From positions 1 to 59,633 of IMG/VR virus record IMGVR_UViG_3300023184_000136: a DNA stretch of 59,633 bases. One strand, written 5' to 3'. Numbering within the stretch: position 1 is the first letter of the stretch; each line of letters starts with the position of its first letter. A model generated the notes under the pieces. The model had not been told where the DNA came from. It was given only the letters and a program-made list of their open reading frames with translations, and searched no databases. Positions 17,089 to 57,266 of this stretch are shown piece by piece. The DNA is from a virus. Taxonomy: Duplodnaviria > Caudoviricetes. The position numbers and the translations under genes were made by a program.

Positions 17089-18270
17089 ATGAAAGAATTG
17101 ATTAGACATATATTGTACAACCATATTAACGAACAAAGAGGAGGAGGTAATAAATTAGATACTCAAAAATTCATTGAAAGGGCAAAAGAAATTCATGGAA
17201 ATAAATTTGATTATTCTAAAGTAAATTATGAGGGAATGAGAATTCCTGTTGAAATCATTTGTCCAATACATGGTAAAACAATCCAAACACCTTTGGACCA
17301 TTTAAGAGGCAGTGGATGTAGTAAATGTGGTAATGAATTAAAAAAATATATTAGACTGAAACCTGTTGAGGAGTTTTTGAAACAAGCAAAGGAAGTTCAT
17401 GGGGACAAATATGATTATTCTAAAGTTGATTATAAAAATACAGAAACTAAAGTTAAAATAATATGTCCGATACATGGAGAATTTTTACAATCACCACACA
17501 GTCATTTGGGTGGTAAGGGATGTCCTAAATGTTCAGGTAAAAATCAAACAGAGGACGATTTTATTAGAAAGGCTCAAGAAGTTCATGGAAATAAGTATGA
17601 TTATTCACAATTGAATTTCAAAAATATGTCATCTCCTGTAACAATTATCTGCCCAATTCATGGTAAATTTACTCAAAATGTTGGCCATCACTTAAATGGT
17701 CATGGATGTTTTGAATGTGGAAACGAAAAGAAAATAGAAAACAGAAGAATGTCCATTGATGATTTTGTTAAACAATCACAGGAAATTCATGGGGACAAAT
17801 ATGACTATTCAAAAACTGAAAATGTTAAATTAAACAAAGATTTAACTACAATTATATGTCCAGTACATGGGGAATTTTTACAATCTAGAAATTCACATTT
17901 AAGAGGTAGAGGATGCCCACTATGTAGAGAATCAAAAGGTGAAAAGTTAATAAATAATTTATTAAAACAAAATAGTGTAAATTTTAAGAGACAATATAGA
18001 TTTGATGATTGTACAAATAAGTTTGAAAAATTTTGTGTGAAATTACCATTTGATTTCTATTTACCCGATTTAAATGTTGCAATTGAGTATGACGGAGTCC
18101 AACATTTTGTTCCATCATTTGGCCCCCGTTCATTTGAAATTACTCAAAGAAACGATAAATTTAAAAACAATTATTGTCGTAAAAAAAATATTAAACTAAT
18201 AAGAATACCTTATACTTGGGATGCTGAAAAAGTCAAAACTCAATTAATTAAAAAATTAGGAATTAAATAG
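17089..18270 (+). CDS. putative homing endonuclease: four DUF723-like Zn repeats + C-terminal PD-(D/E)XK/Vsr-like nuclease
   Basis: 4x F..xA.E.HG.KYDYSK...IICP.HG.F.Q....HL.G.GC..C; C-terminal SKGE, LPFDFYLP, IEYDGVQHF. Confidence 0.8.
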   Translation: MKELIRHILYNHINEQRGGGNKLDTQKFIERAKEIHGNKFDYSKVNYEGMRIPVEIICPIHGKTIQTPLDHLRGSGCSKCGNELKKYIRLKPVEEFLKQAKEVHGDKYDYSKVDYKNTETKVKIICPIHGEFLQSPHSHLGGKGCPKCSGKNQTEDDFIRKAQEVHGNKYDYSQLNFKNMSSPVTIICPIHGKFTQNVGHHLNGHGCFECGNEKKIENRRMSIDDFVKQSQEIHGDKYDYSKTENVKLNKDLTTIICPVHGEFLQSRNSHLRGRGCPLCRESKGEKLINNLLKQNSVNFKRQYRFDDCTNKFEKFCVKLPFDFYLPDLNVAIEYDGVQHFVPSFGPRSFEITQRNDKFKNNYCRKKNIKLIRIPYTWDAEKVKTQLIKKLGIK

Positions 18271-18313
18271 ACCCCACCCTGTGTGGGGTTTTTTATTCTA
18301 TATGGTATTTATT
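18270..18313 (+). repeat. terminator + TATTTAT promoter junction, copy 2
   Basis: GACCCCAC-cctgt-GTGGGGTTTTTT, then TATTTATT at 18306. Confidence 0.7.
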
Positions 18314-18317
18314 GTAT

Positions 18318-18767
18318 ATGAAATTCATTATAAAAGAATCACAATATCAAAGGTTATTATTAGAGAGTAACCATATGAATTTTTATGATAATTTTCCTAC
18401 TATATTGGAAGAACTATTACAAGTTCCAGAATTTAGGGAGGATTTAAAAGAACATTCATATAATAAAAATGGTTATGTTAATTGGTGGAAGAGAGCGAAG
18501 GAAGATATGCAATTTTTAATTCGTGACAAATACTGTGGGTTATTTAAACAATTGGCTAGAAAGTATAAATTTAAATTAGATGTGGATGGGTATGGCGAAA
18601 AATATTTATGTATGACGTATGGAGGGATGTTTGGAGAAGCATTTTTTCACCAACTAAGGGGAAATAGATATGTTGGTGATGATGCACCAATAGATGATGG
18701 TCCCTATGAATATGAAGGACCCCCTTGGGTTTCTGAGTTTTTTATGAAAACATTTTACGGTAAATAA
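18318..18767 (+). CDS. hypothetical protein with N-terminal IKESQ...LLES peptide
   Basis: ORF 18312..18767; ATG 18318 preferred. Confidence 0.7.
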   Translation: MKFIIKESQYQRLLLESNHMNFYDNFPTILEELLQVPEFREDLKEHSYNKNGYVNWWKRAKEDMQFLIRDKYCGLFKQLARKYKFKLDVDGYGEKYLCMTYGGMFGEAFFHQLRGNRYVGDDAPIDDGPYEYEGPPWVSEFFMKTFYGK

Positions 18768-18773
18768 AATTAT

Positions 18774-18799
18774 GACCCCACCCACCAGTGGGGTTTTTT
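18774..18799 (+). terminator. terminator, copy 3 of the ACCCCAC/GTGGGGT family
   Basis: GACCCCAC-ccacca-GTGGGGTTTTTT. Confidence 0.75.
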
Positions 18800-18865
18800 A
18801 TTTTTATCTAGCTTGATATTGACTAGATAAATTATTAATTGTATATTTTATAAAAAGTAAAGTAT

Positions 18866-19270
18866 ATGTCACCAATTGAAAAAGTAATCAAAGAAAATCA
18901 AGAAGAGTTTATGGACATGGTAATTAAGTTTGTAAACGAAAAAACTTTGACAAAACAAAAGAAAGCACCAAAAACTATTTGTCATTTCCAAGCGTTGGGA
19001 AAAACGTATGATAGTAATATTTTTGCAAGAAACTATGAAAGTTTTTTACAAGACGTTTCTAAAATAATGGAGTATGATAAATTTAAATCAATCCTTAAAG
19101 GATTTGTTAGAGAGAGTGAGAATGATTTCTCAGAATCTCATGAAGGAAAAACATCTATGATTAAATTACATAATGGAGGTGTAGCGACTTGTTATTCAGG
19201 AACCCCAAAAAAATTGGAACACATTAAAGGACTATGCGATGTTATGGGGGTTAGTTTAATAATCAAATAA
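18866..19270 (+). CDS. hypothetical protein
   Basis: 134-aa ORF downstream of TTGACT-N17-TATATT. Confidence 0.7.
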   Translation: MSPIEKVIKENQEEFMDMVIKFVNEKTLTKQKKAPKTICHFQALGKTYDSNIFARNYESFLQDVSKIMEYDKFKSILKGFVRESENDFSESHEGKTSMIKLHNGGVATCYSGTPKKLEHIKGLCDVMGVSLIIK

Positions 19271-19324
19271 TAACAAGTAAGTTGGTTTTATAAAAATTTT
19301 TATTTACATTTCTAAAAAAGAAAT

Positions 19325-19873
19325 ATGGAATCAATTAACAATCTTAAAAAGATTATCAAAGATAATTGGGGATTAATTATTAATGATTTTAATGCACATA
19401 TTGAAGAAAAGTTTGAGCAATTTTTCTTTATGTCTTATTCGGATTATTTTAAGAATAATAAAACACAAGAAATAACTAAAATAATTTCACCTGTATTCAA
19501 TGCCATATTGTGTAAAAATTTAAAGCCTTTTGGTTTTAATAGGTGTGAAAGTGATGGTTCAGATTATGTGTTTGATAACGTTTTTATTGAAGGTAAAATC
19601 ACATTATCAAAAGATAATTCTTGGACCGGTAATGGATATAAGAAAACTAGCTGGCATTTATTAATCAAGTTAGATTTGGATGAAAATGGTATGATTCGTT
19701 ATTCATTCTGTGGTTTAGTTCCATTAGATGAGTGTATTTCAGACTGGACCAAGCCAACACTTGGTAGTAATTTTAGCTCATTAAAATTTGAAAATCAGGA
19801 CTATCAAAAAATAAATATTATTAATGGTATGATTGAAAGAAAGACTAGTCTTTTATCTATTATTTTGTTATAA
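19325..19873 (+). CDS. putative type II restriction endonuclease
   Basis: DGSDYVF...FIEGKIT (PD-(D/E)xK-like); lies directly upstream of an MTase. Confidence 0.5.
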   Translation: MESINNLKKIIKDNWGLIINDFNAHIEEKFEQFFFMSYSDYFKNNKTQEITKIISPVFNAILCKNLKPFGFNRCESDGSDYVFDNVFIEGKITLSKDNSWTGNGYKKTSWHLLIKLDLDENGMIRYSFCGLVPLDECISDWTKPTLGSNFSSLKFENQDYQKINIINGMIERKTSLLSIILL

Positions 19874-19881
19874 TTATTAAT

Positions 19882-20706
19882 ATGGAATTAAATAAAATAT
19901 ACAACGAAGACTGTCTAATAACTCTATCTAACGTACCTGATAATACTATTGACCTAACTGTAACATCACCTCCCTACGATGATTTAAGAACGTATAATAA
20001 TCATATCTCAGGTATTAAAACTGAATTTAATGGATACTCTTTTGACTTTGAAAAAATTGCAAGAGAATTGTATAGAACAACTAAAGAAGGAGGAGTAGTT
20101 GTATGGGTTGTTGGAGACGGAACAGAGAAAGGAAGTGAAACAGGAACATCATTCAAACAAGCATTATTCTTCAAAGAGATTGGATTTAATATTCATGACA
20201 CAATGATTTACATGAAGAATAATTTTTCAAATCCATCTTCAAATAGATACCATCAAATTTTTGAATACATGTTTGTTTTATCTAAGGGTAAACCAAAGAC
20301 ATTCAATTCAATTAAAGATAGAAAGAATGTTTATGGTGGTCAGGTTGGTAGTTGGGGTAAGAATACTTCTCGACAAGTGGATGGAACGATGGTAGAAAGA
20401 AAGAAAAAAATCATTGAAGAGTACGGTCAAAGATATAATGTATGGACATTTAAGACATCTAAGAACGGTCAGGAGGATGAAATAGCTTATCAACACCCTG
20501 CAATATTCCCAATTCAGTTGGTTAAGGACCATATAATGAGTTGGTCAAACCCTGGTGATTTAATTTTTGACCCGTTTATGGGTAGTGGGACAACGGCAAA
20601 AGCTGCAGTTCAAACTGAAAGGTCTTACTTGGGTAGTGAACTTTCTGAGGAGTACTATGGTATTTGTTTAAAAAGATTAGAAACGATTCAAAAAGAATTA
20701 AGATAA
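19882..20706 (+). CDS. DNA amino-methyltransferase, beta class (N4-C/N6-A)
   Basis: TSPPY precedes HPAIFP and DPFMGSGTT. Confidence 0.92.
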   Translation: MELNKIYNEDCLITLSNVPDNTIDLTVTSPPYDDLRTYNNHISGIKTEFNGYSFDFEKIARELYRTTKEGGVVVWVVGDGTEKGSETGTSFKQALFFKEIGFNIHDTMIYMKNNFSNPSSNRYHQIFEYMFVLSKGKPKTFNSIKDRKNVYGGQVGSWGKNTSRQVDGTMVERKKKIIEEYGQRYNVWTFKTSKNGQEDEIAYQHPAIFPIQLVKDHIMSWSNPGDLIFDPFMGSGTTAKAAVQTERSYLGSELSEEYYGICLKRLETIQKELR

Positions 20707-20768
20707 ATTAACAGATGCTAGTTATTACTAGTTTTTCTTAATATTGACGATATTTATTAATGAATATC

Positions 20769-20810
20769 AATCCCATCCGCATCTCGCAAGAGTTATGTGA
20801 TGGGATTTTT
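20769..20810 (+). other. long hairpin in the 5' leader of the beta-barrel gene
   Basis: AATCCCAT...CTC-GCAA-GAG...ATGGGATT followed by a T-run. Confidence 0.55.
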
Positions 20811-20836
20811 ATTTATAAACATTAAACAAAACGAAA

Positions 20837-21286
20837 ATGAAGAAAAAATTTTTGTTAGTTTTTGCTCTCGTAAGTTCGTTAGTAGTGTTTGGACAAGACC
20901 ACAAAAAGGGATGGGATGTCTCAGTGGGACCAACATTATTCGTACCGATGGCAAAAACTGTTGATTGGAACTCCAAAGCTTATGGAGAAACCGTGAAATT
21001 TCACAAAGAAAACATGGTGGTAACTGTGGGTTTTATGCAGGATAAGAACAACTTTGTTGTTGCTCCTGTATTAATTGGAGGTCGAAAGCATCTTAATCAT
21101 AACCTACAACTAGGTCTTGATGCGGGTGTTACTTTTTTCCATGGTCAAAAGGGACAATTTACATACGTTCCTTCCCTTGGTTACAAGATAAACAAAAAAT
21201 GGTGCTTAGAACAATCACTTCTAAGGACTGTAAAAGATGGTAAGACAACCAACCGAGTAGGGTTAGGGTTGCTTTATAATCTTTAA
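20837..21286 (+). CDS. small outer-membrane beta-barrel protein
   Basis: Signal peptide, alternating amphipathic strands, C-terminal GLGLLYNL. Confidence 0.7.
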   Translation: MKKKFLLVFALVSSLVVFGQDHKKGWDVSVGPTLFVPMAKTVDWNSKAYGETVKFHKENMVVTVGFMQDKNNFVVAPVLIGGRKHLNHNLQLGLDAGVTFFHGQKGQFTYVPSLGYKINKKWCLEQSLLRTVKDGKTTNRVGLGLLYNL

Positions 21287-23041: not shown

Positions 23042-23839
23042 ATGAGAGAAAAAGCAGTAATACCAATTAACCAAGACGAGATTGCAAGTTATTTAAAAGA
23101 CATTCGAAAGTTAACTGTAATGACGGTTGAAAGAGAACGTGAACTTGCAGATAGAATGTTATCGGGAAACATTACCGATGAAGAAAAGGCGGAGATAAAG
23201 AAGGAGATACTTGAAGGTAACCTTCGTTTCGTTATCACCGTGAGTAAACAATATCAAAACCAAGGGTTGGACTTCCCTGATTTGATTGCCGAAGGAAACT
23301 ATGGTTTGTTGAAAGCCATCGAGAACTTTGATTGGTCCAAGAAATTAAGATTTATATCTTATGCCGTTTGGTGGGTTCGTCAATCCATCCTGCAATCTCT
23401 TAATGAGAATGCAAGAACCATTCGTCTTCCCGTGAATGTGGTACAAGAGTTACAGAAAGCTAAGAAAGAGTTAGATAGAGAGGGTGTTGAATTACCTGAT
23501 AAGTTTGTTAACCTACCTTATACTGTTAACTTGGATTCACCTTTAAATGAAGATGGAGACACTTTGATGGACGTATTGAATAATCCTAACGCTGAGTGGG
23601 CTGATTCCAACTTGACTACTGAACAGACTTTGAAAGATAAGTTATTGGGTATGTTGGATGTATTGGATGAGAGAGAAAGAATTATCGTGGAGGATTATTT
23701 TGGACTATCTGGCTCAACAAGAACCTTGGAAGATATAGGTAATGACTTCGACTTAACGAAGGAAAGGGTACGACAGATTAAGGAAAAAGCTCTCAGAAAA
23801 CTGAGAAATGAGACGGGTTCTCTGTTCGATTATATGTAA
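23042..23839 (+). CDS. rpoD: RNA polymerase sigma70 factor (Bacteroidetes RpoD-like)
   Basis: NLRFVITVSKQYQNQG, DLIAEGN, RFISYAVWWVRQSI, region 4 LTKERVRQIKEKAL. Confidence 0.93.
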   Translation: MREKAVIPINQDEIASYLKDIRKLTVMTVERERELADRMLSGNITDEEKAEIKKEILEGNLRFVITVSKQYQNQGLDFPDLIAEGNYGLLKAIENFDWSKKLRFISYAVWWVRQSILQSLNENARTIRLPVNVVQELQKAKKELDREGVELPDKFVNLPYTVNLDSPLNEDGDTLMDVLNNPNAEWADSNLTTEQTLKDKLLGMLDVLDERERIIVEDYFGLSGSTRTLEDIGNDFDLTKERVRQIKEKALRKLRNETGSLFDYM

Positions 23840-24908: not shown

Positions 24909-25506
24909 TATAATAAAATATGGAAATTTTAAATCGGTAGGTAAACAAAAAAAGAAGAGACAAATAATCTTATGTCATACGTCAAGGGAGGTTGAGGAAT
25001 ACTTAGCCTCCCTTAAATTTAGGTATAATGGAAAGTACGATAAGATACCTAACTATATTGTAACAACAGAAGGTAAAGTCATTCAACTACTTGACGATAT
25101 ATCTTATTCAAATTATTTCACTGAGCAAAACATTAACAGGAACTCTGTTGTTGTTTGTTTAGAAAATTTGGGATGGTTGGAAAAGAAACCACTAACCAAC
25201 TATTATATTAACTGGAAAGGGAGTATTTATAATAAACAGGTTTACGAAAAAAAGTGGAGAGATTTCTTTTTCTGGCAACCTTACACAACAAGTCAAACGG
25301 AAACAACAGGTGAATTGTGTAACCAAATAATTGAATCTCTTAACTTGGAAAGAAAGTTCATAGGACATAATACCAAGGTTGAAGGTGTTAGTAGATTTGG
25401 AGGTATCGTATCCAAAAGTAATTTTGATACTGCATTCACTGACTTGAACCCATCTTTCAATTTCGAAACTTTTACAAAATTTATAGAACATGAGCAACTT
25501 GCATAA
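24901..25506 (+). CDS. N-acetylmuramoyl-L-alanine amidase (Amidase_2-like endolysin)
   Basis: IILCHT, NYIV...G.VIQ, N.NSVVVCLE, IGH, DLNPSF. Confidence 0.72.
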   Translation: MLDIIKYGNFKSVGKQKKKRQIILCHTSREVEEYLASLKFRYNGKYDKIPNYIVTTEGKVIQLLDDISYSNYFTEQNINRNSVVVCLENLGWLEKKPLTNYYINWKGSIYNKQVYEKKWRDFFFWQPYTTSQTETTGELCNQIIESLNLERKFIGHNTKVEGVSRFGGIVSKSNFDTAFTDLNPSFNFETFTKFIEHEQLA

Positions 25507-26092
25507 TGAAAGATACGATGAGATTAAATCTCTTCTAAAGAAATCAAGAATGTTAATGGAGCAAACAACAGATGAAGCTCCACCCAACATTGCCGCAGAT
25601 ATCGAACAAAAAATAGACCAAGACAATCAAGAGTACGAGACTGCAAATGATGTTGAAACAGACAACGACAATGAAGGTTCTAATGAACAACCTACAGCCA
25701 AAGATAAAGTACAAAAGTACAGAATCTCTGGTGGTATCTTAGCTCTTCACGGAAAAAGCAAAACTGATACTGACATCACTACTGATGATAAATTAGCCTT
25801 CCAAGAAACAATGGATGAATTTGTTAATGAGGTTTCTGACCTTGTTGACTTCAACACGTTAAATGTGTATCCAAATAATGTTGATTGGTCGGGTAAAATC
25901 ATTGATTCAGATTTAGATTTTACTTTCACAATCGGAGAAAATAGTGGAATCTATGTTGATGGAGAAATGTTAAAGGTTGACGAAAGCTTCTTACAATTAT
26001 TAAATAAACTTCAACAATACTATCAAAAATTCAAATCCAAGTGGTCAAGAATTTTAGCTAGTAGGAAAAAAACAAGAGAAACAAATGATTAA
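25490..26092 (+). CDS. hypothetical acidic protein (possible head protein)
   Basis: 200-aa ORF; N-terminal ...SRMLMEQ. Confidence 0.7.
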   Translation: MSNLHNERYDEIKSLLKKSRMLMEQTTDEAPPNIAADIEQKIDQDNQEYETANDVETDNDNEGSNEQPTAKDKVQKYRISGGILALHGKSKTDTDITTDDKLAFQETMDEFVNEVSDLVDFNTLNVYPNNVDWSGKIIDSDLDFTFTIGENSGIYVDGEMLKVDESFLQLLNKLQQYYQKFKSKWSRILASRKKTRETND

Positions 26093-27639: not shown

Positions 27640-27663
27640 AGATATTTATAATAAAAAATTACG

Positions 27664-33911: not shown

Positions 33912-33954
33912 TTATTTTTGTATTCACAATATATTTATAATTAAATCAAAAGAG

Positions 33955-35301: not shown

Positions 35302-35312
35302 AATTGATTTAT

Positions 35313-39026: not shown

Positions 39027-39045
39027 GGATAACAAAACAGTTTGG

Positions 39046-46215: not shown

Positions 46216-46227
46216 ACCCCTTCTTTA
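46195..46227. terminator. bidirectional terminator between convergent genes
   Basis: AAGGGGTT-gattta-AACCCCTT flanked by A and T runs. Confidence 0.55.
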
Positions 46228-47057
46228 TTTAATAACATTTCTATTTCGTCTTTTGTGTTGTATAACATTGTTAAGAATCTTGGCCACATTTTAGGATTAT
46301 GTTTCTTAACTAATTCGATGTAAGTTAAATAATAAGGTTCATCTTTCTTATCAATGAGTTCTGTGGTTTGTGGATAGTCAACTGAGATATCTCCAAGAAT
46401 TTTAGATATTTTATTATCTCCGATGTTTTCATCATTTAACCTATCTAAGATATCTAATGACAATTTGGAAAGCTTCTCATTTTTTCCAAAATAGTTTACA
46501 ATATTATTTAAAGACTTAAGGAGGAATTTTTTATTTTCTACATTTTTTAATCTATTAAATCTTCTTGAGAATTCACCAACCAAAGCTTCTAAGAATTCAT
46601 TTGTGATTGCTCTAAATTCAATTGGATGACCCCAATAATCTTTATCTGACTTTTCATTATATCTTGATTGATATTTGATATTCATTTTTGTAGACTGTGA
46701 TGGGTCTGTGGCGTGTAACATTTCGTGATAGATGGTTAAGAAAAGGTTTTTCTTGGAACCATACTTTTTTGGATTCAATTGAATTACCAAATCTAACGGG
46801 TCTCTTGAACCTTTTGGTCTTGTATCTAATTCACCGAAATGAGGATATCTTGGATTGATATAAATTTGAACTAAAGCATCTGAACCATCTGAAGTTTTAA
46901 ATTGTAGTTGGTCTACTTTTGTTTTCTTATCGTATTGTTTGTTTCTATTAGACCACAACTTATTAGTTAACTCTATCAACCTTGTATAGGTTTCAGGGTC
47001 AAATCTAAATCTCTTTTGTTCTGAGATAACTGTTTCTAATATATTAATAAACTTCAT
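46212..47057 (-). CDS. HExxH zincin-like metallopeptidase
   Basis: TIYHEMLHATD...YWGHPIEFRA. Confidence 0.65.
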   Translation of the reverse strand: MKFINILETVISEQKRFRFDPETYTRLIELTNKLWSNRNKQYDKKTKVDQLQFKTSDGSDALVQIYINPRYPHFGELDTRPKGSRDPLDLVIQLNPKKYGSKKNLFLTIYHEMLHATDPSQSTKMNIKYQSRYNEKSDKDYWGHPIEFRAITNEFLEALVGEFSRRFNRLKNVENKKFLLKSLNNIVNYFGKNEKLSKLSLDILDRLNDENIGDNKISKILGDISVDYPQTTELIDKKDEPYYLTYIELVKKHNPKMWPRFLTMLYNTKDEIEMLLNKEGV

Positions 47058-47845
47058 TAGTCTAAATCAGTACTCCAATCAATTTGGAGTTTTTTTGGTT
47101 TAATTTTGTCTGCGTATTGGTCAAAGACATTTTTAAAAGGAATTTGAGCTTGTTTGATATCTTTAATCCTTCTCATGTCATCACCAATACCTGTAGATAA
47201 ATATGATTGAATCTCATCATCTACAACTTTCTCAGCATATCCCATACCAGTTATCTTCTTGGCAACTTGATTTCTTACCGATTGATTCATGTTCTCGATG
47301 TTAGAGAATTGTTTGTTTCTGTAAGCTGGAGTTGAGAACCATAGACCGTGAGCAACCTCATGGAATATTAAAGATGGGTCATCACCTGTAGATTGGTCGA
47401 TACCAATTAAGTAATAGTTATCACCACCAACAATGGCTCTTACGGTATCAACAATGCTAAACATAATTAAATCGTAGAAGTTAAGGTCAGGAATCATAGA
47501 CATACAAGATTCAATTGAATCACAAGGTATGTTATAACCAGCCCAATCTTCGTGGTATGTGAAGATGTCGTTCTTTGTTTTCTCTTTGTAGAATTTTGTG
47601 TAGTCTTGCCACTTGAATCCTTTACCTCTGAAACTATCTGAATCAGATTCATAGAACTCTTGGTAACGCATAAAAACTCTAGCTCTTAACTTATCGTTCT
47701 TAATAACAACAGCAAATATCTTCGGGTACATCTCAAACAACTCAATCTGTGATAAAATTGATTTGATGTTTGGTGGTGGAGTTTTACGTGGAGTAAAACC
47801 TCTTTGTTCCCTTAATACTTTTAATATAAGTTTATCTTTACTCAT
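47057..47845 (-). CDS. HExxH zincin-like metallopeptidase
   Basis: LIFHEVAHGLW...DDEIQSY. Confidence 0.65.
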   Translation of the reverse strand: MSKDKLILKVLREQRGFTPRKTPPPNIKSILSQIELFEMYPKIFAVVIKNDKLRARVFMRYQEFYESDSDSFRGKGFKWQDYTKFYKEKTKNDIFTYHEDWAGYNIPCDSIESCMSMIPDLNFYDLIMFSIVDTVRAIVGGDNYYLIGIDQSTGDDPSLIFHEVAHGLWFSTPAYRNKQFSNIENMNQSVRNQVAKKITGMGYAEKVVDDEIQSYLSTGIGDDMRRIKDIKQAQIPFKNVFDQYADKIKPKKLQIDWSTDLD

Positions 47846-48843
47846 TAAATGTAATCTTTAAAATACTCATTAATATTTTTATCTACTTTACGACTATCAG
47901 GGTAATCAGGTGGGTTTACAGATAAACAATCTCTGTCTTCCGCCATTATAGCTATGAAACTACCGTGGTATTCTAAAGTCCCTGAATTACCATAACCTTT
48001 ATTATTGTTTAGGTAATCATTTATATCTGTCTCAAATGCAGTCAAAGGTAACTTATTATATTGAATTTCCGTATTCTTTTTATATGGGTGGGGTTTTGTT
48101 ATCCATTCACCTGGACCTATTACATAATCTTGTAATTCGTACCATATTGAACGATAAATATCATCCTCATACGCTGAGTTATAGGATGAACTATGTATCG
48201 AGTATAATTCACTTTTTAATTCATCTAATGGGCCGTTAAGTAGTTCATTCATACTCTCTTTATCATCAACTATTCGCTTAACATTTTCCATATTAACTTC
48301 GACATAGTCAGGATGACCTTGTTCTGATGCAATTAATTGTAGTTCGTCACTCAATCCTGTAACTTCTTGACCCTCTAAAATATTAACAATATATTCTTGT
48401 AATCTTTTATCATTTTCAGGTGTAAGTTCTTCAATAACGTCGCTATAAACATCATCGGTTGTGTTATAGTAAGGTTCCCAATCGCTTTCACCATTCAAAA
48501 CAGATTCGATAGTATCTCTATCAGGTCCATTTCTATCGTTTTTACAAAACAATCTTGCCAAATCACCTCTATCATTAAGTTCCAAATATGCTTTCCCATC
48601 TTCAATTACTACATCATTCAACAAAGTTTGAATCCATTTATAATAATTTTCTCTATCGTTTTCATACAACCAAAGAAGATATTCGTTTTGCCAATATCCA
48701 CCATTATCAGCATTGTTGGGGTCAATGTCTCCCATACGGCCTCGTTTCTTCAACATATTGAAGAATGTTTGGTAGTCATTGAAGTATTTCTCAACCTCTA
48801 AGTCGTTGTTATTAAATTTTTCTATAATGTCATCTATGTCCAT
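47845..48843 (-). CDS. highly acidic hypothetical protein
   Basis: D/E/N-rich; ATG 48843 lies 4 nt after TATTTATA on the minus strand (48848-48855). Confidence 0.75.
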   Translation of the reverse strand: MDIDDIIEKFNNNDLEVEKYFNDYQTFFNMLKKRGRMGDIDPNNADNGGYWQNEYLLWLYENDRENYYKWIQTLLNDVVIEDGKAYLELNDRGDLARLFCKNDRNGPDRDTIESVLNGESDWEPYYNTTDDVYSDVIEELTPENDKRLQEYIVNILEGQEVTGLSDELQLIASEQGHPDYVEVNMENVKRIVDDKESMNELLNGPLDELKSELYSIHSSSYNSAYEDDIYRSIWYELQDYVIGPGEWITKPHPYKKNTEIQYNKLPLTAFETDINDYLNNNKGYGNSGTLEYHGSFIAIMAEDRDCLSVNPPDYPDSRKVDKNINEYFKDYI

Positions 48844-48856
48844 TACATATAAATAC

Positions 48857-48884
48857 AAAAAAAGGGACATTTTATTGTCCCTCT
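48857..48884 (-). terminator. intrinsic terminator
   Basis: AGGGACA/TGTCCCT stem with a T-run on the minus strand. Confidence 0.6.
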
Positions 48885-48908
48885 TAATAGTTTTTTTGAA
48901 TTAGGTTA

Positions 48909-49088
48909 TTATTTCACCCAACCGTTAGTGTTAGTCTTGTTAACGTTGTAGTACTTCTCAATCGTTTTCTTGATTGCTGACTTAACATCTTCGTTAACAT
49001 TTGGCTTCGCTGGTGGTGGAGCTTGTTGAACATTAGACTGTGCTGGTGGTTGACTTTCATTACCTTTATTTTTGCATCCGCATCCCAT
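48909..49088 (-). CDS. 59-aa MGCGCK protein (absent from ORF track)
   Basis: MGCGCKNKGNESQPPAQ...NGWVK; TATTTATT upstream (49117-49124) and a terminator downstream. Confidence 0.65.
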   Translation of the reverse strand: MGCGCKNKGNESQPPAQSNVQQAPPPAKPNVNEDVKSAIKKTIEKYYNVNKTNTNGWVK

Positions 49089-49175
49089 GGTATTAATTTT
49101 TTCTTTGGTTTATCATAATAAATATTATCTTTAGTGAAATATAAACTTAAAAGAATATTTATCAAATAAAACAGA

Positions 49176-50927
49176 ATGGATTTTTTAAAATTGATTAGTG
49201 AAGGTAGAATAGAACAGTTTGAAACAAAGTACGGTAAAAAGTTTTCACCTGAACAACTAAAAAGAATGAGTAAACTTATTCCACCAAAGTATTTGGATTG
49301 GGTGGGTAAAAATATCGATTCAATTAACTTTGATGAGAACTTTGATAAATTAGCTGACGCAGTTAATAAATTCGTTTCAATTGGCTCTAACTTACCTGTA
49401 ACAGATTTATATCAATATCCAAATACTACAAAATTATTTCAAGCGTTAGCTGACTACGAAAACAAAACTAGAAGAACTGTAAGAAAAGTTGAAGGTGGTA
49501 ATGTTGTTTATGATGACTCACGTTTTTTTGTTGTTAATCCTTTAACTCATGAATCATCTTGTTATTATGGAAAAGGTACAAAGTGGTGTACTGCGGCGGA
49601 ATCGAATAGCCATTTCAATCGGTACAATGAAGACGGTAAATTATTTTACGTTATTGATAAAAGTCTCCCAACCAACAACCCTGAATATAAAATAGCTATT
49701 CTTAAAAAGTTTGATGGTCTTGAATCATATTGGAACGCCCTTGATGAAAGTATAACTCATGGGTGGATTTTTGGTACAGATGAATTAAAAAAAGTTAACG
49801 AAGGTATTACCAACTATATGGAGGCCGAATATGCTGACCAATTAAAAATATTTAGAGATAAAGAGGCGGCTAAAAAAGAAAGAGATAGATTGGAAAAATT
49901 AAGACTACAAAACATATTAAACGAACAAAGAGCTGAAGCACAAGAGAGAAGAGAAAACGGAGAATGGGATTTAGGTCCCGACTGTCCTGAAGAAGGATTG
50001 AAAGCACACGCCCTTTTAGATTGGCTTGAAAGTAATGATAATGTTGAAGTTAAAACAAACGAAGATAGAATTGAGATTCAAAGATTAAAAGATGAGATTG
50101 AAAGATTAGAAAGTGAGTACGATAATAGTGAAGATGTTAGAACAGATTTGTTAGATGAAAAAGAAACTTTAGAAGATGAACTAGAGACATTAGAAAGTAG
50201 TATTGATGTTTATAATATTATTCCAACAGGTAGACATTATGATATGACTGAATTTGAGGTAATTGATTCAGATGTAGAAGGACGTAGATATGCCGTTGGT
50301 ACACAGGGCGAAGTTGATACAAGTGCTTATGATTGTGTTGATAATCTAATTGATGATATTGGGTATAATGGATTTAATCAAGGATTTGCCCGAGGATATA
50401 TTGATGAAGAAGCGGTTGCCTCTTATGCTGAAGAGGTTTATGATGATGATGTTAGAGACAACCCAGAGTCTTATTTTGATGATAGCGAAAGACAACTTTC
50501 AAGCGAACAAGATGAAAAGATAGAAATATTAGATAGTAGAATAGAACAGACTGAGGCTTTAATTGAGAGACTTGAAAATGAAATGACTGGTGATGATTCA
50601 GATATTGAGGAACAAATAGATGAACTTAATGATAGAATTACCGAATACAAAGATGAAATTGAAGAAATTGAAGCAGACCCCGAGGGTGAGTTTCCTGATG
50701 ACTTGATTAACGATAAAGTTAGTGACTTGGTTTCAGATGTAAGACGTGACCCAGAAGAGTTTATGGAAACATTTGGATTGAATTGGGAAGACTATATTGA
50801 CAAAGATGATTTCATTCAAGGAGTTATAGATTCTGATGGATATGGTTCTTGTTTAAGTAGTTATGATGGAAATTCGGATGAGGTATATGTCCAAGGACAA
50901 CTATTTTACGTAATCAGAATTGATTAA
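49176..50927 (+). CDS. WCT-motif (PcfJ-related) domain protein with acidic coiled-coil C-terminus
   Basis: SCYYGKGTKWCTAA...FNRY..DGKLF is paralogous to 33955..35301; TATTTATC at 49156. Confidence 0.7.
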   Translation: MDFLKLISEGRIEQFETKYGKKFSPEQLKRMSKLIPPKYLDWVGKNIDSINFDENFDKLADAVNKFVSIGSNLPVTDLYQYPNTTKLFQALADYENKTRRTVRKVEGGNVVYDDSRFFVVNPLTHESSCYYGKGTKWCTAAESNSHFNRYNEDGKLFYVIDKSLPTNNPEYKIAILKKFDGLESYWNALDESITHGWIFGTDELKKVNEGITNYMEAEYADQLKIFRDKEAAKKERDRLEKLRLQNILNEQRAEAQERRENGEWDLGPDCPEEGLKAHALLDWLESNDNVEVKTNEDRIEIQRLKDEIERLESEYDNSEDVRTDLLDEKETLEDELETLESSIDVYNIIPTGRHYDMTEFEVIDSDVEGRRYAVGTQGEVDTSAYDCVDNLIDDIGYNGFNQGFARGYIDEEAVASYAEEVYDDDVRDNPESYFDDSERQLSSEQDEKIEILDSRIEQTEALIERLENEMTGDDSDIEEQIDELNDRITEYKDEIEEIEADPEGEFPDDLINDKVSDLVSDVRRDPEEFMETFGLNWEDYIDKDDFIQGVIDSDGYGSCLSSYDGNSDEVYVQGQLFYVIRID

Positions 50928-52208: not shown

Positions 52209-52435
52209 TGGTACAAAATGAAATGGTAAATGGACCTGCTCATTATGGCGGGGTGGATAATCCATACGAAGTAATTAAAGTCTGCGAAGCTTGGGGATTA
52301 GATTTCGATGCGTATCTTTTCAACGTGGTTAAATATGTTGCAAGGGCTGGTAAGAAAGATGAAACAAAAGAACTTGAAGATTTGAAAAAGGCTGCATTTT
52401 ATTTAGACCGTAAAATTAAAAACTTAGAGAAATGA
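52208..52435 (+). CDS. DUF3310-family protein
   Basis: VNGPAHY, NVVKYVARAGKK, EDLKKAAFYL. Confidence 0.85.
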   Translation: MVQNEMVNGPAHYGGVDNPYEVIKVCEAWGLDFDAYLFNVVKYVARAGKKDETKELEDLKKAAFYLDRKIKNLEK

Positions 52436-52866
52436 TATATTGGTTAACAGGACAACCTGGTGCTGGTAAGACAACATTAGCCACTTGGATACAATCAAGT
52501 TTTCCCAATAAGTCTATGATTGTGGATGGGGACGACCTTCGTGAAATCTTTATTAACAAAGACTACAGCGAGGAAGGTAGACGTAAGAATATTGAGAAGG
52601 CTCAGATACTTGCCAAATTTTTACATCATAAAGGATATACTGTGATTGTATCTTTAGTATCACCTTTTAGGGACCAAAGAGAAGAATTCAAGGTAGAGAT
52701 GAAAGATGATTTAATAGAGGTATATGTACATACCCAAAATGTTAGAGGTAGAGAACAGTTTCACGTAAACTATGAAGAACCTTTAAGTCTCTTCATTGAT
52801 TGTGACACTACAGATAGTAGTGAGTATGCAACATTTTTAGAATTAAGAAGAAAATTAAAAATATAA
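52432..52866 (+). CDS. cysC: adenylylsulfate (APS) kinase
   Basis: WLTGQPGAGKTT, DGDDLR, SLVSPF...R, EVYV, YEEP. Confidence 0.85.
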   Translation: MIYWLTGQPGAGKTTLATWIQSSFPNKSMIVDGDDLREIFINKDYSEEGRRKNIEKAQILAKFLHHKGYTVIVSLVSPFRDQREEFKVEMKDDLIEVYVHTQNVRGREQFHVNYEEPLSLFIDCDTTDSSEYATFLELRRKLKI

Positions 52867-53267
52867 TGGAAAAAATTCACGTAGAAGGAGACCCGAAACT
52901 AAAGAATACTCAAGGTAAACAATATTCAATGTTTATCGGAAGATGGCAACCGTGGCATTCTGGTCACAAATGGTTAATTGACCAAAGATTAAAGGAAGGT
53001 AAAAATGTTTTGATTTGTATCAGAGATGTCAAACCTGATGAAAAAAACCCCTTTACCACTGAACAAGTTCATTCGAATATATTATTTGAATTGTTGGATT
53101 TAATTAGTGAAGGAAGAGTTGAAATTATCAAAATCCCTGACATCGAATCAGTAAACTTTGGTAGAGGAGTTGGTTATGATATTATTGAACATATACCACC
53201 AACAGAAATAAGTGAGATATCGGCAACTAAAATTAGAGAACAATTAAAACAAGAGGGAAAGTTATGA
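52866..53267 (+). CDS. HIGH-superfamily nucleotidyltransferase (NadM/cytidyltransferase-like)
   Basis: FIGRWQPWHSGH, KNPF, GRGVGY, ISATKIR. Confidence 0.8.
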   Translation: MEKIHVEGDPKLKNTQGKQYSMFIGRWQPWHSGHKWLIDQRLKEGKNVLICIRDVKPDEKNPFTTEQVHSNILFELLDLISEGRVEIIKIPDIESVNFGRGVGYDIIEHIPPTEISEISATKIREQLKQEGKL

Positions 53268-54146: not shown

Positions 54147-54181
54147 ATTTACAGGATATTTATAAGGATATTATAAATAAA

Positions 54182-55141
54182 ATGGCTGACATCGTTATAA
54201 ACAAAAAACAATTAAATTTAATCAAGGAACAACAAGTACTTAACGAGTCGTTGTTAAGCATCGAGAATGTATTAATGGCTGTTGGATTCGTACCTGTTAT
54301 TGGAGAATTGGCTGACATTGCTTTAATATGCTATTATCTTTATAAAGGTGAAAAATTATACGCGGCGTTAATGTTGATTGCTCTTATACCTACAGTTGGT
54401 GATTTTATTGTTAAACCAATTATAAAATTATTTCAAGGTAGTAGAAAAGGAGCGGTTGCGTTAAAAACTGGCGGTGTAAAATTAACTGAGTATTTAGCCA
54501 AAAATCCTGAAGCTGCTGCTAAATTTGCTAAATTAGGAAAATATGTAAAAACTCCTGCAGTTGAAAAAACAGTACAGGGGATTACAAAGGTGAACTCAAG
54601 CTTAGGTTCAAAATTAAAATCAGGATTGAGTGAAATAAGTGGAGGAAGTGTTATTGCCGGAACCAAGGCAGCTGCAAAAGAAGTTGCTGCGGGAGGTAAA
54701 TTTGGTAAAGGACTTAAGGACTATTTTCAAGGAGAAAGATTAACTAATTACTTTGTTAAACATGGTGTTGCACCTGAAACTGGAATTAAAAGATGGTGGT
54801 TGAACGTACAAGCTGGTGGAGATAGAAGAGCTGCGTTCAGAAAATTTATTAGTACTAATAATTTACTTGCTTACTTTGGAATTCCTTCTTTGACAACATT
54901 TGAAAGGAAGATGTCTGAAGATGCTGAATTTAGAAAAAAAGTTGCTGATGACCCTAAAACAAGTGACTACATTGCCAAGAATTATAATGATGACTCTAAA
55001 AAATCGTCAGAATCACAAGCATCTAACAACACGGCACAAACCACACAAACTACACCAAATAAAAACGATAACCCATTAGTAGGATTAATTGGAGGTTTGT
55101 TTAATAATCAATTAGGTAAAGCCGCCTTATCAACAATTTAA
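54182..55141 (+). CDS. putative virion/ejected membrane protein with pre-toxin TG-like hairpin
   Basis: AVGFVPVIGELADIA...AALMLIALIPTVGD; TATTTATA at 54157. Confidence 0.55.
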   Translation: MADIVINKKQLNLIKEQQVLNESLLSIENVLMAVGFVPVIGELADIALICYYLYKGEKLYAALMLIALIPTVGDFIVKPIIKLFQGSRKGAVALKTGGVKLTEYLAKNPEAAAKFAKLGKYVKTPAVEKTVQGITKVNSSLGSKLKSGLSEISGGSVIAGTKAAAKEVAAGGKFGKGLKDYFQGERLTNYFVKHGVAPETGIKRWWLNVQAGGDRRAAFRKFISTNNLLAYFGIPSLTTFERKMSEDAEFRKKVADDPKTSDYIAKNYNDDSKKSSESQASNNTAQTTQTTPNKNDNPLVGLIGGLFNNQLGKAALSTI

Positions 55142-55151
55142 AATAAAAGAT

Positions 55152-55523
55152 ATGAAAGAAGAAATAACACTCAAACTTGTCCAAATACAATTACAGTTCA
55201 AATTTTTACATTGGCAAACATTTGGAGATGCTAAACATAAAGCTTATGGAGAAATTTATGAGGCTATGGGAGGTAATATAGATAAGTTAGTAGAGGCTAT
55301 GATGGGAAAATATGGAAGAGTCCAATTTGATTCAGAATTTTCTATTATGTTCCAAGACATCTCAGCATTAAGTGTTCAAAACTTTATGGATGGAATCACT
55401 GAATTCTTAGTGGGTATGACAGAACAATTAGACCCAAAATATGATAGTGACTTATTAAACATCAGAGATGAAATTTTGGGTGACATAAATCAAACAAAAT
55501 ACAGACTTACATTAAAATATTAA
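55152..55523 (+). CDS. ferritin/Dps-like protein (DUF5856-like)
   Basis: LHWQT...AKHKA.GE.YE.....D.LVEA.MG, DLLNIRDEIL. Confidence 0.7.
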   Translation: MKEEITLKLVQIQLQFKFLHWQTFGDAKHKAYGEIYEAMGGNIDKLVEAMMGKYGRVQFDSEFSIMFQDISALSVQNFMDGITEFLVGMTEQLDPKYDSDLLNIRDEILGDINQTKYRLTLKY

Positions 55524-55524
55524 T

Positions 55525-55869
55525 ATGGCAAAAAAAGTAATACGATTGACTGAGGCTGACTTAACAAATGTCATCAAGAGAGTAATCACAGAACAAAGTG
55601 AAGAAAGAAATATCACAAGGGCTATTCAAAAGTTTTTAAACAAAACAATGAAAGCAGGATTAAGTGAAGATGGTAGAACAGGACGTAATTCTGCAACAGA
55701 AGCAGCAATTTCAAAATACCAATCTAGAATTGGAGTATATCCTTCAGATGGTACGTGGGGTCCAAACACATGGGATAAGATGCCGGAACAAGATAGAAAA
55801 TTATTGAAGGACCTTATTGCTAAAGAGGGTGGACCCGTGGATACATTTTTAAATTGGTTAGGAGTTTAA
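55525..55869 (+). CDS. peptidoglycan-binding domain protein
   Basis: IQKFLN...DGRTGRNSATEAAISKYQ...DGTWGPNT. Confidence 0.75.
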   Translation: MAKKVIRLTEADLTNVIKRVITEQSEERNITRAIQKFLNKTMKAGLSEDGRTGRNSATEAAISKYQSRIGVYPSDGTWGPNTWDKMPEQDRKLLKDLIAKEGGPVDTFLNWLGV

Positions 55870-57266
55870 TGAAAAAAATAATATCAGAATCAGGATTAAG
55901 AGACATTTCAGCTTTAAGGAAAAGATATCCTAAAGCTGAAATTTATTTTCACCAAGACTTGGACGGTGTCACAACCGCTATTGCGATGAAGAAATATCTT
56001 GAAGATAATGGTATTAAGGTTGTTGGTTCTCACATAATTCAATACGGAGATAAAGAATTTGCCGTTAAAAAGAATGATGCTAAAGGAGACGTAATGCCGG
56101 TTTTAGTTGATTTTGCTCATGGTAAACCAATGTTCAAGATACATACGGACCACCATGATAGACAAGTAGGTGCTGATAAAGACACATCAAAGTCATTCAG
56201 ACAAGCTCGTTCAAATGTTGAAACAATATCTCAAATTGTTTCTCCAAAAGATTTATTTCCAAGTTCGGATGTCCTTTTAATTAATACTGTAGACTCTGCA
56301 GATTTTGCCCGTCAGAATATTACACCTGAAGATGTTGTAAATTACCTTTTTCGTTTTGATAAAGAATTACCACTTCAAAAAAACAAAATGTTATTAGGGT
56401 TTGTTATTAACAAATTAGTTTTAGCTTTCAAAAACAGACCAGGATTTTTGGAAGGATTGGTTATGGATAGTGAGCCTTCATTAATGTCAATTCTTACTAA
56501 CATAAAGAAATGGATGAAAGAAACTAATGCCGTTGGTACAGAAGAACTTCAACATAATGCCAAAGACTATATGAAATCAATGGAAGGGGTTCCAAAAGTT
56601 GAAGATAGTATTATATCTCAATACGGAGGAGGTTCAATGTTTAAACCAGGTTCATATGACCGTTATACCCCTTTTAAGAACAATCCTGACGCTGATTTTT
56701 TAATCATGTCTTGGCCAATGGGGTTAGTTCAAGCGTCTTGTAATCCATTTAAAAAGGACAGAGAATTGAAAGGAGTTAACTTAGGTGAGATAGCTCAAGA
56801 AGTTTTGGGAAGATGGGAGTCTAAACTTAAAGAAAAGATGATTCCTTTGTCTACAGTTAAATGGGTTAGTGAAACAAGCGTTGGACCTGAAAGTATTGGA
56901 TTTACATTTCAAGACTTTAATGCCATTTATGGTGGAAAGTTTGAGAACCTACCAAACGGAGAAAAAGCGCTTAATCATATTAAAGATATGATGGAGACAC
57001 CATTCAAAGACTTACCTGAGGAACATAGAGAAATGTTAGATAAGATTAAAGTAAGTGCGTGGGATATAATTCAAGCCAATTCAGGAGGTCACAAATGTAT
57101 TACAAACATCGGAGGTTTAAGTTATTTAGGGAGAGGTACAAGACCACCTCAAGGAACATATCGTTATGACTCAAACAAAGAAGACCATCCGTACGTTAAG
57201 TTCGTGAAGATGATTGCCCAAGAATTTGAAAATAAATTAAAAGAGAAGATTCAAGAATCAAAATAA
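55869..57266 (+). CDS. DHH-family phosphoesterase
   Basis: HQDLDG, VDFAH, HTDHH, VDSAD, C-terminal GGH. Confidence 0.75.
   Translation: MKKIISESGLRDISALRKRYPKAEIYFHQDLDGVTTAIAMKKYLEDNGIKVVGSHIIQYGDKEFAVKKNDAKGDVMPVLVDFAHGKPMFKIHTDHHDRQVGADKDTSKSFRQARSNVETISQIVSPKDLFPSSDVLLINTVDSADFARQNITPEDVVNYLFRFDKELPLQKNKMLLGFVINKLVLAFKNRPGFLEGLVMDSEPSLMSILTNIKKWMKETNAVGTEELQHNAKDYMKSMEGVPKVEDSIISQYGGGSMFKPGSYDRYTPFKNNPDADFLIMSWPMGLVQASCNPFKKDRELKGVNLGEIAQEVLGRWESKLKEKMIPLSTVKWVSETSVGPESIGFTFQDFNAIYGGKFENLPNGEKALNHIKDMMETPFKDLPEEHREMLDKIKVSAWDIIQANSGGHKCITNIGGLSYLGRGTRPPQGTYRYDSNKEDHPYVKFVKMIAQEFENKLKEKIQESK

Follow-up and report, generated by a model that had tools for sequence, protein, structure and literature searches.

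The propeptides of bacteriophage T4 are 10-19 residues long (PMC9026906), and the T4 prohead protease gp21, whose catalytic residues are His85 and Ser140, preferentially cleaves after the Glu of I/LxE (PMC12991175). gp21 removes nine N-terminal residues from itself (PMC9958956), and in the internal protein IPIII residues 4 and 7 matter for targeting while residues 8 and 10 matter for processing (PMC9026906). Among the proteins that T4 carries in its capsid are an inhibitor of a restriction enzyme and one enzyme that modifies the RNA polymerase of the host (PMC3012670, PMC9958956). In the giant phages phiKZ, 201phi2-1, and SPN3US, a gp21-related protease cuts after Glu and many head proteins are processed, with multiple sites within one propeptide; SPN3US gp53 and gp54 have diverged paralogous bodies with identical N-termini, and one processed giant-phage ejection protein has a predicted transmembrane helix (PMC5694885, PMC9026906). 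Here we compare with these systems a set of short N-terminal peptides, which we call tags, on 11 proteins encoded by the IMG/VR virus record IMGVR_UViG_3300023184_000136. The window analyzed is this whole stretch of 59,633 bases, and its genes are named by their lower coordinate.

The tags occupy residues 1-7 up to 1-25 across all 11 proteins. They are modular, constrained, and linked to a putative late promoter, and they occur in a lineage whose complete genomes encode a gp21-family prohead protease. Judging from these sequence patterns, we think it rather probable that the tags are removable capsid-targeting propeptides of the T4 type, in a greatly expanded version with several classes. By analogy with T4, the tagged proteins would be docked, cleaved, packaged, and ejected with the phage DNA.

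The record, which the window covers in full, is linear and has a CheckV completeness of 20%, which, judged from relatives in IMG/VR, corresponds to about 20% of a giant freshwater T4-superfamily phage of some 317 kb. Relatives of the gene 33955 protein number 154 in IMG/VR and include 4 complete records of 309-321 kb, one of which has terminal repeats; the identity of this protein is 62-69% in these 4 records and 47-77% across the 80 relatives in which conservation of its tag was scored. The closest complete relative, G001, has 317,259 bases and 413 open reading frames (ORFs) by a simple ORF caller, and gene order places the window opposite its 243-300 kb region in inverted orientation. Positions 33000-50000 of the window have no match to cultured phages by megablast.

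Tag classes in the window and in its closest complete relative

The sequence-only reading of this DNA had proposed that 11 proteins begin with a shared peptide ending in hydrophobic-x-Glu. All 11 N-termini that it quoted translate exactly at the starts it gave, the minus-strand genes being 46212-47057 and 47057-47845. This first observation is real and was defined too loosely, as the true signal is a set of longer tag classes and not the bare motif. The S-class, M-K-x-I-I-T-E-S-Q..phi-phi-x-E, is found on 12 G001 proteins whose genes are mostly clustered at 196-210 kb. The L-class, M-K-K-I-I-R-L-T-E-S-D-L-x-R-L-V-K-R-V-I-x-E-Q, is found on 5-6 G001 proteins scattered across the genome. Further classes are MKF..L..phi-I-x-E-Q and, on endonucleases, MKxLIRxILRE.

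Pattern counts support these classes. The pattern hydrophobic-hydrophobic-polar-E-polar occurs within the first 12 residues of 21/375 G001 proteins; when residues 2-30 are shuffled 500 times, the count is 5.8 +/- 2.3 and never exceeds 13. When 1,012 gapped three-residue patterns were enumerated without bias over the 311 G001 proteins outside the window-syntenic part, the patterns returned were KxxLxE, KxIxxE, ESxL, TExxL, LTE, and ITE (p 6e-8 to 2e-5), together with signal-peptide-like patterns. Within the window, [ILMV]xEQ, a pattern chosen post hoc, is found in 8/75 proteins against 1.6 expected, one of the 8 being a DnaJ J-domain. Over-representation of [IL]xE was also seen in the ORF between portal and protease (z=3.1) and in the scaffold-like protein (z=2.6), a weak indication, as many unrelated proteins reach similar z scores.

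Profiles of the S- and L-classes carry over to the window, where an S-tag profile made from G001 proteins only gives 19.1 bits for gene 18318 and an L-tag profile gives 31.7 bits for gene 55525, which did not contribute to it. The S-profile matches 13-14 of 446 N-termini versus 1-2 of 1,916 internal fragments, and all 7 strong matches of the L-profile are N-terminal. The idea that one profile would collect every tag fared less well: the S-profile misses the L- and MKF-classes and the L-profile misses the S-class. The classes are therefore joined by their position, their (I/L)xE ending, and their promoter context and do not form one alignable family. A cassette at the nucleotide level was also considered and rejected, since neither the tag-coding DNA nor the sequence upstream of it is similar between genes, and the codons for shared residues differ.

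We regard as strong the predicted tags of genes 18318, 55525, 33955, and 17089, and as good those of 47057, 46212, 25490, 27664, 55869, 54182, and 49176. None of them has a hydrophobic core of the signal-peptide type.

Constraint on tag residues

The tags are more constrained than the cargo behind them. In the 33955 family, Glu13 is present in 80/80 relatives and the P3 residue is always Ile or Leu, with a variable P2 and a P1' drawn from Q/S/N/D/G/A. A 45-sequence alignment of this family has M1, F3, L7, and E13 as its only invariant residues before A51, with Thr4, Ile11, and Leu20 conserved at >=90%. This pattern of F3/L7 and I11/E13 has the same layout as the targeting and processing residues of T4 IPIII. 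For 55525, an alignment of 27 orthologues has 16 invariant columns, 9 of which fall in residues 1-24 (M1 I6 L8 E10 L13 V20 I21 E23 Q24), and identity outside the tag drops as low as 33%.

Both tag Glu residues of the 55525 family are thus invariant, as are Glu24 of 25490 (29 distinct orthologue N-termini), Glu18 of 27664 (34 distinct orthologues), L7, L11, and E13 of 47057 (7 distinct orthologues), and Glu7 of 55869 (50 distinct orthologues). The tag Glu is kept in about 90% of 27 distinct orthologues of 49176 (Glu9) and in about 80% of 11 distinct orthologue N-termini of 46212 (Glu13). Gene 54182 is more variable, with Glu8 in about 70% of 31 distinct N-termini; its orthologues have the majority N-terminus MADIIITEKQLALI, which is S-like with a MADIIITE start, and in the window copy Lys replaces this Glu8, so that the first tag Glu is lost.

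A putative late promoter motif

The window has 14 copies of TATTTATA, where 6.6 +/- 2.6 would be expected, and 0/100 shuffles reach this count. Its reverse complement, TATAAATA, is the late promoter of T4. The claim that nearly all tagged genes lie in units headed by TATTTAT is borne out: the motif stands 12-25 nucleotides (nt) upstream of 6/11 tagged genes (Table 1), and 4 more lie in TATTTAT-headed operons, 46212 and 47057 behind gene 47845 and 55525 and 55869 behind 54182. Gene 25490 has only the variant ATTTATA upstream. Counting directly preceded genes in the window, 6 have both tag and promoter, 5 the tag only, 6 the promoter only, and 58 neither (Fisher odds ratio 11.6, p=0.0014). Tagged genes of G001 are likewise enriched behind TATTTAT (odds ratio 3.5, p=0.0011). 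The motif lies within 50 nt upstream of 95/413 G001 genes, which include the scaffold-like gene, the protease, the portal, fibers, and a 1,069-residue protein taken to be the tail sheath. This suggests that TATTTAT is a late-type promoter common to tagged and head genes.

The reading had claimed that the replication genes lack the peptide; the replication, repair, and metabolic genes identified through Pfam have no tag. They comprise primase, Metallophos, SbcC-like, three DNA methylases, Pyr_excise, sigma factor, DnaJ, thioredoxin, glutaredoxin, and NUDIX genes.

The spacing between TATTTAT and ATG in G001, read from the listing, peaks at 11-12 and 20-23 nt. The 11-12 nt spacing class would give leaderless or near-leaderless mRNAs, an observation made together with the window motifs at 17076, 18306, and 48849-48855. 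No Shine-Dalgarno-like sequences were seen by eye in the 25 nt 5' of gene starts. The window also encodes a phage sigma-70 family protein with regions 2 and 4 and no region 3 match (Table 1), which is a candidate for the protein that reads the TATTTAT promoters.

Prohead protease and cleavage sites

PF03420 (Peptidase_S77, the family of T4 gp21) is found above its cut-off in 4/4 complete relatives and in 8/9 further large tag-bearing records, comprising 7/7 of those at >=90% completeness, the miss being a 71%-complete record; in total, 11/11 relatives at least 90% complete encode it. The G001 protease is 34% identical to T4 gp21 (E 1e-20), and its LNHP and SSRG align with the T4 motifs expected, by counting on the alignment, to hold catalytic H85 and S140. 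The protease is 83-95% identical among the aligned sequences, and more than 600 IMG/VR stretches encode a relative. The T4-type head module of G001 consists of a phrog_138 capsid protein, a phrog_207 head maturation protease, a phrog_213 portal, and a large terminase. The capsid protein (phrog_138, 2.5e-64) matches 2,563 T4-type phage records, its closest cultured matches being Microcystis phage Mel-JY01 and Flavobacterium phage vB_FspM_immuto at about 42% and Rhodothermus phage RM378 at 37%.

The motif in which the tags end is also found in these head proteins. BLASTP places FLINE/A of the G001 capsid protein opposite the T4 gp23 maturation site FL-TE/A (the slash standing for the known or predicted cut), and the G001 protease begins MKNLRILE/A, with I6, L7, and E8 invariant in 22 sequences, a start comparable to the nine residues that T4 gp21 removes from itself. 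Similar ends can be read in T4 substrates from NC_000866: MELITE in Alt, MEGLIE in gp67, MLLIPE in gp68, and MAKINELLRE in gp24. A complex prediction with the G001 protease (22-row alignment) and residues 1-50 of the 55525-family protein gave a score of 0.00 without controls, which speaks neither for nor against binding.

Modularity and spread of the tags

BLASTP groups the 42 tagged proteins, 31 of G001 and 11 of the window, into 30 clusters once their tags are removed; the G001 list of 31 tagged genes is partly hand-picked and is a lower bound. Besides orthologue pairs between window and G001, 3 BLASTP links remain, one of which joins 33955 and 49176, which share a domain (26% over 134 residues, E 6e-8). 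The description of the tagged proteins as otherwise unrelated thus holds for the clusters and fails for this pair. Four G001 L-tags, each on an unrelated body, agree at 14-18 of 21 residues, with different codons at about half of the shared residues. Selection therefore acts on the peptide.

A degenerate DNA pattern for the L-tag is found in at least 120 IMG/VR stretches. Among the loci examined there are 176 matches, and in 171/175 the nearest ATG precedes the Thr of T-E by 8-9 residues. The L-tag heads at least 130 distinct complete proteins of 79-419 residues, whose bodies form at least 62 clusters, 47 of them singletons. The S-tag pattern has at least 166 matches, 79/166 with TATTTAT within 40 nt; 152/165 start ATGs lack another in-frame ATG ahead of them, the ORFs have a median length of 136 residues, and at least 135 distinct proteins in at least 65 clusters carry this tag. 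No Pfam family is found in 126/129 L-tagged representatives scanned.

An L-tag profile built from 60 N-terminal 33-mers, which comprise one sequence from each cargo cluster and that of the window, was run against 1.84 billion cluster representatives. At E<=1e-3 it finds 7,958 of them, and 933 pass E<=1e-10; as the library has no genomic context, a viral origin of all 7,958 cannot be stated. Among the best 150 matches, 140 start at residue <=4 and 4 at residue 12, where the start was called long, while the 6 with an internal match each also have an N-terminal copy (5 complete; P0125 begins inside the tag). Two tag copies, one N-terminal and one internal or C-terminal, are present in 17 of these 150 (e.g., P0123, P0127, P0131, and P0138), with layouts such as tag-body-tag-peptidoglycan-binding domain. 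Such ORFs look like tag-cargo-tag-cargo polyproteins or in-frame fusions of neighboring tagged genes. In G001, an L-like tag (14.6 bits) is found at the C-terminus of the 216750-217184 product.

The L-tag DNA pattern has only 2 matches in 185,579 prokaryote genomes. One is a true N-terminal tag on a contig of 31% guanine plus cytosine (GC) from a Bacteroidota metagenome-assembled genome (MAG). The other lies inside a 1,226-residue Sporolactobacillus protein and was rejected as chance. Analogous peptides were found by eye in a cultured T4-like phage, Flavobacterium phage vB_FspM_immuto (NC_055915, 100001-150000), which has an annotated S77 protease and a gp23-type capsid protein. There, 7/54 coding sequences start with one of two recurring peptides, of the MKKSQL..II.E type and the FDLKKFLVENKL type, both with (I/L)xE and on otherwise different proteins. 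One of these peptides heads a 73-residue ORF between portal and protease, the position of the T4 core genes gp67 and gp68.

Proposed mechanism and alternative explanations

The head of this lineage is made with a capsid protein like gp23, a portal like gp20, and a prohead protease like gp21 (Peptidase_S77). If the tags are capsid-targeting propeptides, TATTTAT-promoted late genes would encode proteins whose first 7-25 residues are one of the tag classes. The hydrophobic positions of the tag would dock the protein on the scaffolding core during prohead assembly, and the protease would then cleave behind every (I/L)-x-E Glu, in many tags twice. Once matured, the cargo would remain in the head and exit with the DNA at the next infection. 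Repeated and C-terminal tag copies fit such a module for docking and cleavage; T4 Alt is likewise processed at its C-terminus (PMC9026906). The sequence-only reading had likewise proposed a modular tag of the T4 capsid-targeting, gp21-cleaved type. This core idea is well backed by comparative data that the reading did not have, namely the protease of complete relatives, the INE/A site at the capsid maturation position, the invariant Glu and P3, the modularity, and the promoter shared with head genes; the bare motif does not back it. Its further suggestion, that the cargo forms an anti-host or anti-defense arsenal, draws on analogy with T4 IPI and Alt, and the tagged proteins may serve such a role.

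Several observations weigh against this interpretation. The hydrophobic-x-Glu motif as first described is not above chance, with [IL]xE in the first 25 residues of 23/75 window proteins versus about 20.0 matches expected from its density in the protein remainders. The tags had been called amphipathic, which does not discriminate: the mean maximal helical moment is 0.56 for the 11 tagged proteins and 0.51 for 60 others (p=0.12). The 12 exact patterns discovered in G001 replicate weakly in the window (13 N-terminal versus 67 elsewhere, 1.9-fold, p=0.025), because most window tags belong to other classes. The window, as a 20% fragment, has 0 PF03420 matches and no protease, capsid, or portal gene, so this argument rests on relatives. 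A cleavable (I/L)xE end does not by itself prove targeting. The number of tagged genes, at least 31 as counted in G001, is far above that of T4, and the cargo is unlike the known T4 internal proteins in including a homing endonuclease and a conserved enzyme, the latter 76-87% identical in the best 80 of 464 relatives. Finally, the Gln that invariably follows the L-tag Glu is not among the known determinants of gp21 and may serve another function.

The alternative that survives best is that the tags dock to another late partner, such as a chaperone, a membrane or envelope site, another virion part, or a phage-made compartment, and are neither cut nor loaded into the head. Conserved, modular, N-terminal tags would be expected from any addressing system, so many tagged genes are a high number for head cargo, the cargo includes the membrane-like 54182 and a peptidoglycan-binding protein besides the endonuclease and the conserved enzyme, and the P1' Gln would be left unexplained by head loading. 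We nonetheless consider a different partner unlikely, since the positions that never vary are the P1 Glu and the P3 Ile/Leu of the gp21 rule and the same motif recurs at the capsid maturation site and the protease N-terminus. Internal and C-terminal copies would be needless for an N-terminal sorting signal, a signal-peptide-like hydrophobic core is lacking, and tail, sheath, and fiber proteins, which are also late, carry no tags.

A second alternative keeps the cleavage and drops the targeting: the protease would remove propeptides that mask activity or are merely discarded, with head entry through other parts of the proteins. There is precedent in T4, where (I/L)xE ends of several core proteins are cut and only the IPII/IPIII peptide has been shown to target (PMC9026906, PMC9958956), and where the N-terminal peptide of gp21 blocks its own active site (PMC9958956). 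It seems quite improbable here, given invariant upstream positions beyond what I/LxE needs (F3 and L7 in 33955; I6, L13, and V20 in the L-class) and a near-identical 24-residue peptide on thousands of proteins, which exceeds the needs of a cleavage site.

The last alternative, that there is no common system and that unrelated N-terminal families meet chance (I/L)xE, MK(I/F/K) being a frequent protein start in this AT-rich genome, can draw on the chance-level [IL]xE count, the weak replication, the absence of cross-detection between classes, and the weaker members 49176 and 25490, which rest on a conserved Glu in generally conserved N-termini, yet it has very little chance of being right in view of the shuffle and enumeration results, the (I/L)xE ending of every class and its tie to TATTTAT, and the recurrence of the add-on described below on 21/120 endonuclease homologues.

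Capsid targeting thus remains the explanation we prefer. A wider picture can be put forward tentatively, and we hold it to be possible and no better than doubtful: that an abundant freshwater T4-like lineage of about 300 kb, probably on Bacteroidota, loads a huge and fast-turnover repertoire by a multi-class address code, with at least 31 tagged genes in each genome, thousands of cargo families across metagenomes that nearly all lack a recognized domain, pre-made homing endonucleases, and protease-cut tag-cargo-tag-cargo polyproteins.

Individual tagged proteins

The coordinates of tagged genes and other features are collected in Table 1.

Table 1. Tagged genes, promoter-like motifs, and other features of the window
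Feature	Coordinates	Strand	Tag or remark
HNH/DUF723-repeat homing-type endonuclease	17089-18270	+	16-residue N-terminal add-on 17089-17136, MKELIRHILYNHINEQ
149-residue protein, S-class tag	18318-18767	+	tag 18318-18368, MKFIIKESQYQRLLLES, Glu7 and Glu16
200-residue acidic low-complexity protein	25490-26092	+	tag 25490-25564, ends LMEQ
586-residue Lys/Glu/Asp-rich protein	27664-29424	+	tag 27664-27717 (..KILSE)
448-residue protein, C-terminal leucine-rich-repeat (LRR)-like region	33955-35301	+	tag 33955-33996, MKFTSLLKSVILEQ
281-residue protein, HEMLH at residue 111	46212-47057	-	tag 47016-47057, MKFINILETVISEQ; third gene of TATTTAT-headed operon
262-residue protein, HEVAH at residue 162	47057-47845	-	tag 47804-47845, MSKDKLILKVLREQ
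Possible twelfth tagged gene (weak), outside the earlier list	47845-48843	-	likely start MDIDDIIEKF, I-I-E at 6-8
583-residue protein, distant paralogue of 33955 in central domain	49176-50927	+	tag 49176-49217, MDFLKLISEGRIEQ
319-residue protein, hydrophobic membrane-like segments	54182-55141	+	tag 54182-54232, MADIVINKKQLNLIKEQ
114-residue peptidoglycan-binding-domain protein, L-class tag	55525-55869	+	tag 55525-55596, MAKKVIRLTEADLTNVIKRVITEQ, Glu10 and Glu23
465-residue DHH-like phosphoesterase candidate	55869-57266	+	short tag 55869-55889 (MKKIISE)
TATTTAT motifs heading tagged units	17076-17082, 18306-18312, 27643-27649, 33932-33938, 49156-49162, 54157-54163	+	late-promoter-like
TATTTAT motif heading the 47845 operon	48849-48855	-	late-promoter-like; 12 nt upstream of the gene 47845 ATG
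Internal L-tag-like segment of 27664	~28660-28695		residues 333-344, LSLTENELIDM.., 5.8 bits
Protein with SprB repeats	4158-6143	+	661 residues; PF13573, 6e-13
Variable island	16424-21286		17089, 18318, two ORFs of unknown function, DNA methylase, lipoprotein-like ORF
Phage sigma-70 family protein	23042-23839	+
Auxiliary genes	31783-32709, 37621-38246, 52432-53267, 57620-58039	+	full-length DnaJ; thioredoxin and glutaredoxin; APS-kinase-like P-loop protein with cytidylyltransferase-like neighbor; NUDIX hydrolase
Three consecutive large fiber genes	39046-46215	+	988, 693, and 709 residues
tRNA-Met gene	58459-58531	+	~800 nt upstream of GOLLD RNA
GOLLD RNA	59339-59633	+	RF02032, 210 bits, model positions 1-299 of 416; cut by record 3' end

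The endonuclease of gene 17089 matches phrog_559 (2.2e-83) and DUF723 (3.9e-17), and the family matches start at residue 17 or later, behind the tag. An add-on of the MKxLIRxILRE type is present in 21 of its 120 best homologues and absent from the other 99, and the median distance from Met to the first DUF723 core is 27.5 residues in tagged versus 10 in untagged homologues. The neighboring gene 18318 has no Pfam, PHROG, or NCBIfam family. Neither 17089 nor 18318 has an orthologue among the loci compared. The two genes lie in a variable island, because a single 781-residue gene (278843-281188) replaces window 16424-21286 in G001.

The naming of the endonuclease and of the peptidoglycan-binding protein in the sequence-only reading holds up, the latter through PG_binding_1 in residues 31-86 of 55525 (5.8e-5, 23.6 bits against a cut-off of 23). 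The two HExxH proteases that it named do have their HEMLH and HEVAH strings and belong to no recognized peptidase family; no Pfam, PHROG, or NCBIfam family is found for either. Atlas leads, all below 0.9, are LPD23 (0.87) and SprT-like (0.84) for 46212, and Peptidase_Mx1, ATLF, and M90 (0.80-0.81) for 47057. The DHH phosphoesterase of gene 55869 falls short of its family, with DHH at 19.4 bits below the Pfam cut-off of 28.1 and no NCBIfam or PHROG family, although DxD-like and DHH strings are visible. LRR matches are likewise below their cut-offs, and "WCT" is not a known family.

Genes 25490 and 27664 encode highly charged proteins of low complexity whose likeness to prohead core or internal proteins is limited to composition; 25490 has no Pfam, PHROG, or NCBIfam family. 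The internal L-tag-like segment of 27664 is stronger in its G001 orthologue, with 12.4 bits at residues 317-335. Six orthologues of 55869 found elsewhere, which form one cluster, have a full S-tag ahead of the usual start (MKIIITESQFRMMIKESG...). Gene 47845, which heads the operon containing 47057 and 46212, has no Pfam family; its G001 orthologue starts MEYSWDDIVEKF, keeping I-V-E.

Other features of the record

The window has 28-38% GC except for a stretch at 40-46 kb with 44-51%. This GC island is formed by the three fiber genes, which encode collagen triple-helix repeats and C-terminal Peptidase_S74 chaperone domains, with PA14 in the first; the remaining genome is at 28-38% GC. The auxiliary genes, the tRNA-Met gene, and the GOLLD RNA are listed in Table 1. 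The SprB repeat is named for a Flavobacterium gliding adhesin, and the SprB-repeat protein, together with the tagged ORF on the Bacteroidota MAG contig, is a hint that the host belongs to the Bacteroidota.

Comparison with known systems

No paper was found that contains LTESDL or IITESQ, supplements not being covered. The "capsid targeting sequence" papers listed, judged by titles and abstract openings, concern T4, P1, P22, or SPN3US or cite the T4 work, with none on Bacteroidota or freshwater jumbo phages. With prohead protease terms included, we found no earlier description of these tags in the literature searched.

Capsid-travelling proteins that act in the first seconds of infection are known for few laboratory phages. 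If the tags are what we propose, a simple profile would single out, across thousands of uncultured phages of the T4 superfamily, proteins that are candidates for injection, a rich and mostly unannotated pool for the discovery of anti-defense proteins, and the tags could be used for packaging when Bacteroidota phages are engineered. In the wider picture put forward above, the tags would give a read-out of the injected proteome of uncultured phages from sequence, and their classes might set copy number, position, or release order. A cultured relative with analogous recurring N-terminal peptides makes the idea directly testable.

The cargo-loading peptides of encapsulins offer a likeness, as there too a short conserved peptide on unrelated proteins leads to an HK97-fold shell. 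They differ in being usually C-terminal, in binding the shell protein directly, and in not being removed, without a protease.

The resemblance to IPI, IPII, IPIII, and Alt of T4 goes further. Both systems have short N-terminal peptides ending in (I/L)-x-Glu (10-19 residues in T4, 7-25 here), conserved upstream hydrophobic residues along with P3 and P1, unrelated and fast-diverging cargo, and head genes of the gp23, gp20, and gp21 types. T4 tags a handful of proteins, whereas at least 31 are tagged in G001 and at least 62 and 65 cargo clusters are seen for the L- and S-tags in the lineage. Unlike in T4, there are several classes, with longer two-site tags and an invariant Gln after the second Glu, tag copies also occur inside proteins or at their ends, the cargo includes homing endonucleases, and the system is known from sequence alone. 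phiKZ, 201phi2-1, and SPN3US use A/S/G-x-E and mostly propeptides of more than 100 residues. The tags described here are short with Ile or Leu at P3 as in T4 and, unlike in those giant phages, accompany a gp23-like capsid protein that is closest to those of T4-like phages of Flavobacterium, Microcystis, and Rhodothermus.

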